In this document: in pieces, positions 1 to 3,000 of the stretch
How positions within the stretch are numbered: position 1 is the first letter of the stretch
How the letters are laid out: each line of letters opens with the position of its first letter
Made by a program: the position numbers
IMG/VR virus record: IMGVR_UViG_2654587685_000008
DNA: 8,105 bases
Direction: 5' to 3' (one strand)
Source of the DNA: a virus
Lineage: Duplodnaviria; Heunggongvirae; Uroviricota; Caudoviricetes

Positions 1-3000
1 GCAGATCATCAACGGTGTGTTCAGCCAGTTACTGGCAACTTTCCCGGCGAGTCTGGCTAACCGTGACCAGAACGAACTGAACGAAATCCGCCGCCAGTGG
101 GTTCTGGCTTTCCGGGAAAACGGGATCACCACAATGGAACAGGTTAACGCAGGAATGCGCGTAGCCCGTCGGCAGAATCGACCATTTCTGCCATCACCCG
201 GGCAGTTTGTTGCATGGTGCCGGGAAGAAGCATCCGTTATCGCCGGACTGCCAAACGTCAGCGAGCTGGTTGATATGGTTTACGAGTATTGCCGGAAGCG
301 AGGCCTGTATCCGGATGCAGAGTCTTATCCGTGGAAATCGAACGCGCACTACTGGCTGGTTACCAACCTGTATCAGAACATGCGGGCCAATGCGCTTACT
401 GATGCGGAATTACGCCGTAAGGCCGCAGATGAGCTTGTCCATATGACTGCGAGAATTAACCGTGGTGAGGCGATCCCTGAACCAGTAAAACAACTTCCTG
501 TCATGGGCGGCAGACCTCTAAATCGTGCACAGGCTCTGGCGAAGATCGCAGAAATCAAAGCTAAGTTCGGACTGAAAGGAGCAAGTCTATGACGGGCAAA
601 GAAGCAATTATTCATTATCTGGAGACGCACAAGAGCTTCTGTGCGCCGGACGTTGCCGCGCTAACAGGCGCAACAGTAACCAGCATAAATCAGGCCGCGG
701 CTAAAATGGCACGTGCAGGTCTTCTGGTTATCGAAGGTAAGGTCTGGCGAACGGTGTATTACCGGTTTGCTACCAGGGAAGAACGGGAAGGAAAGATGAG
801 CACGAACCTGATTTTTAAGGAGTGTCGCCAGAGTGCCGCGATGAAACGGGTATTGGCGGTATATGGAGTTAAAAGGTGACCATCTACATCACTGAGCTAA
901 TAACAGGCCTGCTGGTAATCGCAGGCCTTTTTATTTGGGGGAGAGTAAATCGTGGTTGAGTTGATTTTTTCTGCATTGAGGATTCTCGGTGCTATGTGGA
1001 TGGTGTCGACGTTCATTGCGGTTGTCGGAAGTTTTGTCCGGTTGGTAGGCGAAGGTAAAGACCTGGTGGGTGTGCTGTTCGGTAGCATTCTCCTGTGGGT
1101 GATTATCGGTGTTGCGCCTGTCGCTGTAGCAAAAATGGCGTGGCGTTTTGTGAGTTGAGGTGACAATGAAGCAAATATACATGCTTCGCAACGAAGCAAT
1201 CAGAAACAACGCCATAGACGCAATACTCTCACTTCCGATCGACGACAAGTCACCTCACGAAGTCCACATTAAAGAACCAAAGCGGAGCAATCCTCAAAAC
1301 CGCCTTATGTGGGCGTTATTGCAGGACGTATCACGTCAGGTGCTTTGGCATGGACAGAGACTTGCGCCGGAGGACTGGAAAGACCTGTTCACTGCCCTGT
1401 GGCTTAAGACCAAAAAACTGGAGCAACGAAGTGTGCCTGGTATCGATGGTGGCGTTGTCATGCTTGGCGTGCGTACCAGCAAAATGCGAAAGGCCAGCAT
1501 GACTGAGCTTATCGAAATCATGTTTTGGTTCGGCTCAGAGCGCAACGTGCGGTGGAGTGATGACTCCCGGCGAGAGTATGAATGGTCACAACGAAAAGGT
1601 AGGGCTGCATGACTATCAAATCAAATACACCAGCACACGACAAGGACTGCTGGCAAACGCCGCTTTGGCTTTTTGATGCGCTGGATATTGAGTTTGGATT
1701 CTGGCTGGATTCAGCTGCGAGCGACAAAAATGCTCTGTGCGCTCACTGGCTAACTGAGGCCGACGACGCACTCAATTCTGAGTGGATAAGCCACGGTGCA
1801 ATCTGGAATAACCCACCGTACAGCAATATCAGGCCGTGGGTGGAAAAAGCCGCTGAGCAGTGCATACAACAGCGACAGACGGTAGTGATGCTTGTGCCAG
1901 AGGATATGTCTGTCGGATGGTTCAGCAAGGCTCTGGAGAGTGTTGACGAAGTTCGCATTATCACTGATGGACGGATTAATTTTATCGAACCATCGACAGG
2001 GCTGGAGAAGAAGGGAAACAGTAAAGGCTCCATGCTGCTGATTTGGCGACCGTTCATCAGTCCTCGACGGATGTTTACTACCGTATCCAAAGCGGCATTG
2101 ATGGCGATCGGGCAGGGCGTCAGGAGGGCGGCATGAGGCGACAGCGACGAAGTTTCACCGACATCATCTGCGAAAACTGCAAATACCTTCCAACGAAACG
2201 CTCCAGAAATAAACGCAAGCCAATCCCAAAAGAATCTGACGTAAAAACCTTCAATTACACGGCTCACCTGTGGGATATCCGGTGGCTAAGACATCGTGCG
2301 AGGAAAACAAGGTGATTGACTAAAATCGAAGTTACGAACAAGAAAGCGTCGAGCGGGCTTCAGTGTACACTGAGTGGATTCTATCTAGGCTTAGTGCATA
2401 CAGAAGATTGCTGGTAAAGGACATGCCAGGCAAAACGATGAGGACTGATATTTATGAAAACATCTGATTTTTTACTGTTCTTGCATGCGGTACAGGAGGG
2501 GCTTTGACCGGGCATTTTATCGTGAATATTTTCACTTGGTATTTCTTTGGTTTTAGAGATTACTTCACTCGATGGGTTTTAAATAGTTTTCGTCGGTTTA
2601 TCGGGTGCAAGCCTGATATGAGAATTTATAAAGATGAAAAGAATTGATTGTTAATGTGTTATGAGGTTTTTTGTTGTGAGTTTGTAATTTGCTTTTATAG
2701 AAATACATTAAGTAAATATAATTAAATATTCAAATTGTATATGTATGCGACATGTTGGTGTTTGGTCGCATACACTGTTGAATATTTGGCTAATGTTATA
2801 TCAATGTAGAGTTAAAGTCTAACACAACATAGACTCTCTATATGCTAACGTCTTGACTATAACTGCAATTATTTTTTCATTAACTTCGTTACCAATGCTT
2901 AAACGCGAAATATCTTTCTCATGAGTTTTGTTCAAAAATATCAAGAAATTTTTCATTTCGTTTGGTAATGTATTTAGTTCTGTTTCTGAGAATCTTTTTT

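Follow-up and report, generated by a model that had tools for sequence, protein, structure and literature searches.

In phage lambda, only 73 bp separate the stop codon of ren from the start of ninB, and the Shine-Dalgarno sequence in this junction, GGGGGAGA, runs directly into ninB. In the complete lambda-like prophage studied here, which adjoins mdtA, the corresponding junction is longer, raising the question of whether the additional DNA is a gene and, if so, what its product might do. The window, i.e., the whole stretch of DNA that we analyzed, is 8,105 nucleotides long. An earlier note on this DNA had described an extra ORF of 68 codons at 952-1158 (+ strand), here called ORF68, coding for a strongly hydrophobic peptide with two transmembrane helices and lying just downstream of the terminator tR2. 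Comparison with other phages agreed with the first of these points, as the junctions of both lambda and P22 are without such an ORF.

The gene 5' of ORF68 is ren (589-879, + strand; "protein ren" in RefSeq), a match to the Ren-like family phrog_142 (E 2.9e-42). Its TGA stop codon (877-879) overlaps the GTG of a NinA-like mini-ORF of 27 codons (876-959, + strand; phrog_5907, E 1.3e-18), which translates as VTIYITELITGLLVIAGLFIWGRVNRG followed by a stop, spans tR2 and, with its TGA at 957-959, overlaps the start of ORF68 by 8 nt. This mini-ORF is absent from the RefSeq annotation of the prophage; ninA is annotated in the records of HK620, HK630, SPN9CC and P22, and some records put the name NinA beside or over the ORF68 region. 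A terminator scan placed the intrinsic terminator tR2 at 905-938 (+ strand), with a hairpin at 905-928 whose stem has eight pairs, six of them G-C, followed by TTTTTATTT, the T-rich tail being TTTTTATTTG. The tR2 sequence is invariant in lambda, HK620, HK630 and HK022 and identical here, ORF68 beginning just 3' of it; the HK620 record gives the same hairpin this name and the P22 record lists a lambda-like terminator. No other terminator was found on the + strand, hence none belonging to ORF68 downstream, nor did the scan find a + strand promoter-like site between tR2 and ORF68; a single weak promoter-like site on the minus strand equals the chance expectation. Beyond the terminator stem, RNA folding of the region from tR2 to the start codon was no more stable than in shuffled sequences (z = -1.0). 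On the 3' side, the TGA of ORF68 (1156-1158) overlaps the GAGG Shine-Dalgarno of ninB (1157-1160, + strand), which lies 5 nt ahead of the ninB ATG; ninB (orf; 1166-1612, + strand) is annotated in RefSeq and matches Pfam NinB (E 7e-49).

ORF68 starts with GTG and its translation is MVELIFSALRILGAMWMVSTFIAVVGSFVRLVGEGKDLVGVLFGSILLWVIIGVAPVAVAKMAWRFVS. A Shine-Dalgarno sequence, which the earlier note had also claimed, is present as GGGGGAGAG at 937-945 (+ strand), well spaced at 6 nt ahead of the GTG; like tR2 it is invariant, and in lambda it serves ninB. An in-frame TAA at 946-948 precludes any start further upstream. The start position and the 68-codon length are constant across subfamilies, with GTG in the E. 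coli types and ATG in the Salmonella type. The HK630 record has translation begin later, at Met17; we rejected this start, which would remove the conserved K/R10, G13 and W16 along with half of helix 1. Two long antisense ORFs opposite ORF68 (897-1199 and 931-1248) were likewise rejected as genes: one has stops in homologues and the other stays open with a pN/pS of 0.79-0.85, an openness that is expected because the hydrophobic codons opposite avoid TTA, CTA and TCA. The length of ORF68 is in itself statistically unremarkable, given that 6% of shuffles of 880-1165 contain an ORF of 68 aa or longer on the + strand, and the case for its reality therefore rests on conservation.

That conservation lies at the protein level. 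Compared with homologues from mEp213, HK620 and SPN9CC, which are 44-54% identical, ORF68 has a dN/dS of 0.24-0.34 at a dS of 1.2-1.9; synonymous sites are thus saturated between the subfamilies, yet the protein is conserved. Across the six frames, pN/pS is lowest in the annotated one (0.49-0.52, against 0.62-1.26 in the others). Even homologues of 27-36% identity retain the length, both helices and the residues W16, W49, G53, P56 and W64. The region is accordingly not a spacer conserved only as nucleotide sequence, the case that the earlier note had named as refuting its reading. Some stretches are also (nearly) identical between subfamilies at the nucleotide level, namely codons 49-54 and the last eight codons, 61-68, in which there is no synonymous difference from HK620 or SPN9CC. 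A dN/dS of about 0.3 indicates only moderate constraint, and much of it could reflect a generic need to reside in the membrane, because most replacements exchange one hydrophobic residue for another. Altogether, these data support a firm gene call with the GTG start: ORF68 codes for a protein, counts among the accessory genes of the lambdoid nin region and belongs to PHROG 1165.

ORF68 is already catalogued, as a conserved hypothetical small phage membrane protein. It matches the phrog_1165 HMM with an E value of 1.2e-34, residues 1-68 aligning with positions 1-68 of a 68-position profile that all 16 diverse family members match, and it is 100% identical to RefSeq WP_000229809.1, annotated as a CDS for a "hypothetical protein". 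Since RefSeq and PHROGs list it, ORF68 is not a new discovery; the catalogued family has the same position, after tR2 or after replication genes, and we noted no differences between it and ORF68. PHROG 1165 includes HK022 gp58, mEp213 gp58 and orf70 of Stx2 phage 86. The search for homologues in other lambdoid prophages that the earlier note had proposed thus found them (e.g., in mEp213, HK620, HK022 and SPN9CC): homologues occur in 107 phage records, and ORF68 is carried by 527 of 5,426 complete E. coli genomes. A search for related loci with close alignment gave five loci only, two from Escherichia and three on probably misbinned MAG contigs. An exhaustive HMM search extended the family to relatives of 63-66 residues with 27-36% identity and the same two-helix layout, from Erwinia, Pantoea, Izhakiella and Serratia according to the source records; among the 190 family-related sequences gathered, 140 have exactly 68 residues. 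In the Erwinia and Serratia prophages that were checked, the relative belongs to the early right operon and comes after its replication genes: in Erwinia tracheiphila it has a lambda-P-like gene directly 5' and NinB downstream, and in Serratia it follows DnaC-like and NinX-like genes. A tR2-like gap is missing ahead of both, and the link with tR2 is therefore specific to the lambda/P22/HK group. Damaged alleles also occur, with a nonsense mutation at codon 15 in H-19B, apparently the same allele in an Stx1a phage (identical tblastn identity) and a C-terminal frameshift in the homologue of a Salmonella phage.

The description of the product as strongly hydrophobic, with two transmembrane helices, was borne out as a prediction by hydropathy and by an AlphaFold model. 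Kyte-Doolittle means over 19 residues show two peaks, at residues ~11-29 and ~38-60, which reach 2.0 and 2.5 and both exceed 1.6; the GRAVY value is 1.5. The AlphaFold model (pLDDT 91.4) has helices at residues 2-33 and 38-67 with a break at 34-37, suggesting a helical hairpin whose two hydrophobic helices are long enough to cross the inner membrane, into which the protein is predicted to insert. From hydropathy, model and conservation, predicted transmembrane helix 1 comprises residues 11-29 (982-1038, + strand), is preceded by the conserved K/R10 and contains W16 and F21. The model break and the charge counts define a polar turn, RLVGEGKD (residues 30-37; 1039-1062, + strand), with V32, G35 and D37 conserved. 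Predicted transmembrane helix 2 (residues 38-60; 1063-1131, + strand), based on the same three lines of evidence as helix 1, has invariant G53 and P56 and a nearly invariant W49, and leads into a basic C-terminal tail, KMAWRFVS (1132-1155, + strand), with conserved K61 and W64 and a net charge of +2. Charged and strongly polar residues are absent from both helices. In helix 2, the conserved W49, G53, P56, V57, K61 and W64 tend to fall on one face, and a moment as large as theirs arose in 211 of 5,000 shuffles. Across 16 members, K and R number 45 in the two tails and 30 on the loop side, with acidic residues concentrated in the loop, which weakly suggests that both termini are cytoplasmic and that the acidic G-x-D(P) turn is periplasmic.

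Searches of families, folds and literature returned no functional match. Profiles from Pfam, NCBIfam and PADLOC gave no family for the ORF68 protein at E values up to 1, the PADLOC-DB defense profiles included, and Pfam gave none for 16 relatives. A PDB sequence profile search returned a single chance-level hit (E 0.13). Foldseek comparison of the model with the PDB and viral structures found generic helical hairpins only (E 0.9 or worse), which is uninformative because the fold is so simple. Literature queries on the accession, the PHROG identifier, the nin-region context and small membrane proteins or defense in prophages yielded nothing on ORF68, and articles dealing with phage L, epsilon34, UAB_Phi20 and the EHEC phages go no further than NinA or the nin genes as a group, or are silent on both.

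What remains is to ask how such a gene would be expressed and what its product could do; the earlier note had named toxins, superinfection-exclusion factors and modulators of host membrane proteins as candidate roles. In our favored explanation, to which we assign a probability of roughly 0.5 as a whole, modular recombination inserted ORF68 exactly between tR2 with its Shine-Dalgarno and ninB, and it lies within the rightward early operon with neither promoter nor terminator of its own. By analogy with lambda, its transcription, from pR, would require N-modified RNA polymerase to pass tR2, and such readthrough would make it a delayed-early, lytic-phase gene that is silent in the lysogen. Dependence on N, which the earlier note had proposed, is reasonable, because an N-like antiterminator gene is present in this prophage and no + strand promoter-like site lies between tR2 and ORF68. 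Translation would begin at the GTG at 952 from the ribosome-binding site that ninB uses in lambda, and the overlap of TGA and GAGG may pass ribosomes that finish ORF68 on to ninB. We regard it as highly probable that ORF68 is a real, N-dependent gene for a small inner-membrane protein. Much more tentatively, its product may be a small protein that sits in the membrane, binds another inner-membrane protein and could, for instance, block DNA entry by a superinfecting phage or neutralize a membrane-acting defense of the host or a prophage. The gene neighborhood points to no partner, because the downstream neighbors differ between phages. Our guess that a binder is likelier than a pore or toxin draws on helices free of charged and strongly polar residues, the one-faced conservation of helix 2 and the lack of a long charged C-terminal tail; our guess that ORF68 is dispensable for phage growth draws on its absence from lambda and P22 and on the nonsense and frameshift alleles of other phages.

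The best-surviving alternative, although an unlikely one, is that ORF68 damages the membrane, either as an oligomer resembling a holin, antiholin or pinholin or as a depolarizing toxin, and so tunes lysis timing or stops host metabolism after induction. Class II holins and pinholins such as S68 of phage 21 have ~68-71 residues and two membrane helices; ORF68 resembles them in size and helix number, its weakly predicted N-in/C-in topology would agree, and the small-residue spacing G40xxxG44 together with the invariant G53 could aid helix packing into oligomers. However, class II holins are encoded in the lysis cassette and carry a highly charged, hydrophilic C-terminal domain, whereas ORF68 belongs to the early operon, has a tail of just eight residues and lacks charged and strongly polar residues in its helices. 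The prophage moreover encodes a class II holin, an endolysin and spanins of its own in a lysis cassette that lies outside the window on its 3' side, ~8.3 kb downstream of ORF68. Holin profiles from Pfam, NCBIfam and PHROG gave no match at E values up to 1, nor did toxin profiles from Pfam, NCBIfam or PADLOC; two predicted helices and the absence of any toxin-profile or Rfam hit also set ORF68 apart from type I toxins of the Hok/Gef kind, which have a single membrane helix and an overlapping antisense RNA, and no signal of an antisense RNA or antitoxin exceeded chance.

Very improbable is a role in anchoring or organizing phage DNA replication or recombination, by which ORF68 would hold the replication complex, or the NinB pathway, at the inner membrane. 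Small membrane proteins do tether replication to the membrane in phi29, and the ORF68 family always sits at the boundary between replication and nin genes, whichever module precedes it (lambda P, a P22 gp12-type helicase or a DnaC-like protein), often translationally coupled to the gene upstream. Yet these modules are mutually unrelated, lambda and P22 replicate without ORF68, its cytoplasmic parts (~10 and 8 residues) offer little surface for soluble replication proteins, and position in a mosaic operon is weak evidence of function. We consider it very improbable that ORF68 is a classical moron, i.e., a gene for lysogenic conversion or superinfection exclusion expressed from the resting prophage. 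Its patchy, accessory distribution would suit such a role, one frequently taken by small phage membrane proteins such as HK97 gp15, P22 SieA and lambda RexB, but it follows tR2 immediately, within a pR operon that is repressed, has no + strand promoter-like site or terminator of its own, and has a base composition (GC 0.48) that matches its surroundings and contrasts with the AT-rich island at 2400-5600. Finally, that ORF68 makes no functional protein and is a spacer, recombination linker or nucleotide-level element left open by chance is highly improbable: the shuffling result, the stretches of nucleotide identity and the broken alleles would allow it, but the protein is conserved across saturated synonymous sites, distant homologues keep its length, helices and key residues, and nearly three-quarters of the gathered sequences have exactly its length. 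The lack of an Rfam match anywhere in the window is neutral on this point.

Returning to the membrane-embedded binding partner, it is tempting to speculate, as a long shot, that lytic-phase ORF68, conserved across lambdoid phages of the Enterobacterales, disables a specific inner-membrane protein, either a DNA-entry component or an abortive-infection effector. Candidate targets include a sugar transporter or other DNA-entry component used by rival phages, and a membrane-embedded RexB-, Zorya- or Kiwa-type effector. With the former target, ORF68 would provide exclusion during the lytic cycle; with the latter, it would be an anti-defense protein. In-frame fusions of ORF68 with the NinA mini-ORF occur occasionally and, if ORF68 does disable such a target, would hint that NinA, too, is made as a protein and acts together with ORF68. 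A host membrane modulator, superinfection block or counter-defense factor would add a player to the lambda early program, and with ORF68 present in roughly a tenth of complete E. coli genomes and in many Stx2a-converting phages, it might influence the competition and spread of Shiga-toxin phages. The practical yield is a firm gene call, a supported GTG start and a clear separation from NinA, and the family is carried by cultivable phages suited to knockout (HK022, HK620, HK630, mEp235 and mEp213).

Among known systems, NinA of P22, HK620 and lambda is, like ORF68, hydrophobic and encoded 5' of ninB and 3' of ren or the replication genes. NinA, however, has 26-27 codons in another frame that runs through the tR2 hairpin, and ORF68 begins where it ends; we rejected an identity of the two, as the NinA-like ORF is separate and ORF68 matches phrog_1165, not phrog_5907. 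T4 Imm, HK97 gp15 and P22 SieA are small, non-essential exclusion proteins of the phage inner-membrane type, Imm being made early in lytic infection. ORF68 shares with them small size, phage origin and a predicted or known place in the inner membrane; homology is not detectable, the Pfam superinfection-exclusion families (T4 Imm, SieA/SieB, HK97 gp15) giving no sequence match, and, unlike gp15 and SieA, ORF68 is not positioned for expression from the prophage. AcrZ and MgrB are very small, hydrophobic, single-helix proteins of the host with known partners, whereas ORF68 is phage-encoded and has two predicted helices. In these proteins as in ORF68, conservation is confined to a helical stripe and interfacial Trp and Lys residues, and binding to a larger membrane protein, a candidate activity for ORF68, is the sole plausible one for proteins so small and hydrophobic.

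The window is from a lambda-like E. coli prophage and represents its early-right region. The end of gene P is followed by ren (589-879), a plus-strand terminator hairpin (905-928), a 68-codon ORF (ORF68; 952-1158, plus strand) and directly by ninB (1166-1612), and then by a Dam-type methyltransferase gene, ninE, an AT-rich island, an HNH endonuclease gene, ninG, a phosphatase gene and Q. Positions 1-8010 are 100% identical to prophages in several complete genomes, bar one repeat-length difference, and the AMSHJX01 counterpart of the prophage is a full-length lambda-like element adjoining mdtA. 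ORF68 encodes 68 residues from a GTG start, which follows GGGGGAGAG (937-945) at a distance of 6 nt; since a TAA lies in frame at 946-948, no start further upstream is possible. A terminator scan identified the hairpin, followed by TTTTTATTT, as the sole plus-strand terminator-like site within 600-1700. At the 3' end, ORF68 and ninB are tightly packed, the stop of the former overlapping the GAGG of ninB, which lies 5 nt ahead of the ninB ATG.

We aligned this junction with those of lambda, HK620, HK630 and HK022. All five sequences share the hairpin, the T-run and GGGGGAGA without change. In lambda, this shared element leads directly to ninB (GGGAAGTCATGAAAAAA) and the gap between ren and ninB is just 73 bp, whereas in the window and the three HK phages it is followed by GTAAATCGTGG into the 68-codon ORF. 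P22 also lacks ORF68. The hairpin is labelled tR2 in the HK620 record and as a lambda-like terminator in that of P22. The alignment and the HK620 label bear out the earlier note, which had given lambda only a short spacer here and had seen an extra 68-aa ORF with a Shine-Dalgarno-like sequence just downstream of tR2. Judged from these junctions, ORF68 is an optional module inserted precisely after the shared terminator and ribosome-binding site.

An ORF as long as ORF68 arose in 6% of shuffles of 880-1165, so length alone is not improbable, and it is conservation that marks ORF68 as a genuine gene. Its product is a full-length match to phrog_1165 ("unknown function"; E 1.2e-34) and is annotated in RefSeq as hypothetical protein WP_000229809.1. 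Homologues, which the earlier note had proposed to seek in other lambdoid prophages, were found in 107 phage records by tblastn, with identities of 95% in many Stx2a phages, 91% in HK75/HK629/HK630, 88% in HK022, 53-54% in mEp235, HK620 and mEp213, and 44% in Salmonella P22-like phages. Megablast located ORF68 in 527 of 5,426 complete E. coli genomes, and every record in the listed sample of these annotates a hypothetical protein. Against divergent homologues, dN/dS was 0.24-0.34 at saturated dS (1.2-1.9), and pN/pS was lowest in the annotated frame (0.49-0.52 versus 0.62-1.26 in the other five). Homologues keep the 68-codon length and begin at the same position, the E. coli types using GTG and the Salmonella type ATG. 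These comparisons show that ORF68 is a conserved coding gene.

The family is narrow, since just 25 clusters among 1.84 billion representative proteins matched its profile. Its most distant relatives (63-66 aa, 27-36% identity; named sources Erwinia, Pantoea, Izhakiella and Serratia) share the same layout and retain K/R10, W16, G35, W49, G53, P56, K61 and W64. In an Erwinia tracheiphila prophage the relative begins one base past the end of a lambda-P-like gene, with NinB downstream. A Serratia prophage has O-like and DnaC-like genes followed by a NinX-like gene, whose end overlaps the relative; a third relative shares its early region with RecT and an integrase. Conservation across these genomes is thus at the protein level and with conserved synteny, which refutes a spacer conserved only as nucleotide sequence, the alternative raised at the outset.

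Within the gene, in the region 1096-1158, the last 8 codons show zero synonymous differences from HK620 or SPN9CC, and codons 49-54 match HK620 exactly and SPN9CC almost exactly, while the mid-gene is saturated with changes. Protein P0147 is a chimera of two subfamilies. This pattern suggests recombination joints inside ORF68, or nucleotide-level constraint linked to ninB translation initiation.

ORF68 is not NinA, a different ORF of 26-27 codons running through tR2 and annotated in HK620, HK630, SPN9CC and P22. The NinA-like mini-ORF of the window (876-959, plus strand, 27 codons, VTIYITELITGLLVIAGLFIWGRVNRG, phrog_5907) is hydrophobic, its GTG overlapping the ren stop and its TGA the ORF68 start; the lambda counterpart (26 codons, 1068-1148 of lambda locus L004) has ATGA overlaps with both ren and ninB. 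The mini-ORF may be either translated or a by-product of the terminator sequence. In four Salmonella prophage gene calls of 93-94 aa (P0121, P0123, P0125 and P0128), NinA is joined in frame to the ORF68 homologue. These proteins point to no fewer than three distinct small indels within the T-run or G-run of the terminator's tail, which may reflect genuine variation or sequencing errors in homopolymers, or hint that NinA is translated. Two long antisense ORFs were rejected as by-products: one has stops in homologues, and the other (931-1248, minus strand, 105 codons), open in all homologues compared, has a pN/pS of ~0.8 and most likely results from lying opposite a run of hydrophobic codons.

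Elsewhere in the window, a phage Dam-type N6-adenine methyltransferase gene (1609-2136, plus strand) stands in place of lambda ninC. The AT-rich island between ninE and ninG (2400-5600; GC 0.31-0.39 versus ~0.50 in the flanks) holds a 590-aa ORF (2819-4591, minus strand; phrog_9230, unknown function) that matched nothing in Pfam or PADLOC and looks like foreign cargo in the nin region. The gene at 5178-5753 (plus strand), whose end overlaps the ninG start, encodes an HNH endonuclease domain together with a weak AP2 DNA-binding domain that falls short of the Pfam cut-off; its product is probably a homing-type endonuclease. Between these divergently oriented genes lies a perfect (TATTTC)n microsatellite (4908-4996) of 14.8 copies, with 12.8 in strain ECO2947 (L001, 7908-7984) and 8.8 in AMSHJX01 (L020, 18908-18960), in prophages otherwise nearly identical; its length might alter promoter spacing in the fashion of a contingency locus.

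The ORF68 product matched no Pfam, NCBIfam or PADLOC family and no PDB sequence, and a structure search returned nothing beyond generic hairpins. Its GRAVY ranks second among the window's 39 ORFs of 50 aa or longer, the first being merely translated microsatellite. Kyte-Doolittle means over 19 residues peak at 2.0 around residues 11-29 (2.35 for the HK620 type) and at 2.5 around 38-60, dipping between them at the turn RLVGEGKD; AlphaFold2, run with a 19-sequence alignment, gave two helices (2-33 and 38-67) with a four-residue turn between them (pLDDT 91.4). A two-helix hairpin is thus predicted with high confidence, in agreement with the strongly hydrophobic, two-membrane-helix protein first proposed. 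Across 16 diverse members, Lys and Arg number 45 in the two tails versus 30 on the loop side, where acidic residues also lie, so the positive-inside rule weakly favours cytoplasmic termini. The conserved residues of helix 2 (W49, G53, P56, V57, K61 and W64) tend to one helical face, and the observed moment was reached in 211 of 5,000 shuffles.

ORF68 lies within the pR operon, immediately past tR2, and the same prophage encodes a phrog_271 N-like gene. From established lambda biology, ORF68 would be transcribed only when N-modified polymerase reads through tR2, so its product is expected in the delayed-early stage of lytic growth. A classical moron is rejected, as no promoter or terminator belonging to ORF68 was found and its GC content is that of its surroundings. 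The homologue in H-19B (L008, 1495-1701) is broken in this Stx1 phage lineage by a single-base nonsense change (GGA→TGA) at codon 15, probably shared by the Stx1a phage Stx1a_11KH263, judging from its identical tblastn identity, and one Salmonella phage carries a C-terminal frameshift. Together with the absence from lambda and P22, these alleles point to a dispensable gene.

The soluble parts are tiny, charged or strongly polar residues are absent from the helices, and the conserved positions fall only in the helical stripe and at interfacial Trp and Lys; the most economical activity, at a guess, would therefore be binding to another inner-membrane protein. Such binding could block DNA entry by a superinfecting phage or neutralise a membrane-acting defence during lytic growth, a tentative reading to which we assign a probability of roughly 0.3. 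That the hairpin instead damages the membrane or times lysis seems unlikely; a lysis holin is rejected, as the prophage carries class II holin, endolysin and spanin genes in a separate cassette. Anchoring of replication or recombination is improbable, and exclusion by a protein expressed from the prophage slightly more so. Lack of any function is the most doubtful of all.

Literature searching found no paper on ORF68, whose exact product RefSeq and PHROGs already list as a hypothetical protein. Its significance is modest; only a specific membrane target, or a phenotype in exclusion or anti-defence, would raise it. ORF68 is a real but ordinary gene, among the many small, hydrophobic and uncharacterised accessory genes that the mosaic nin region carries.
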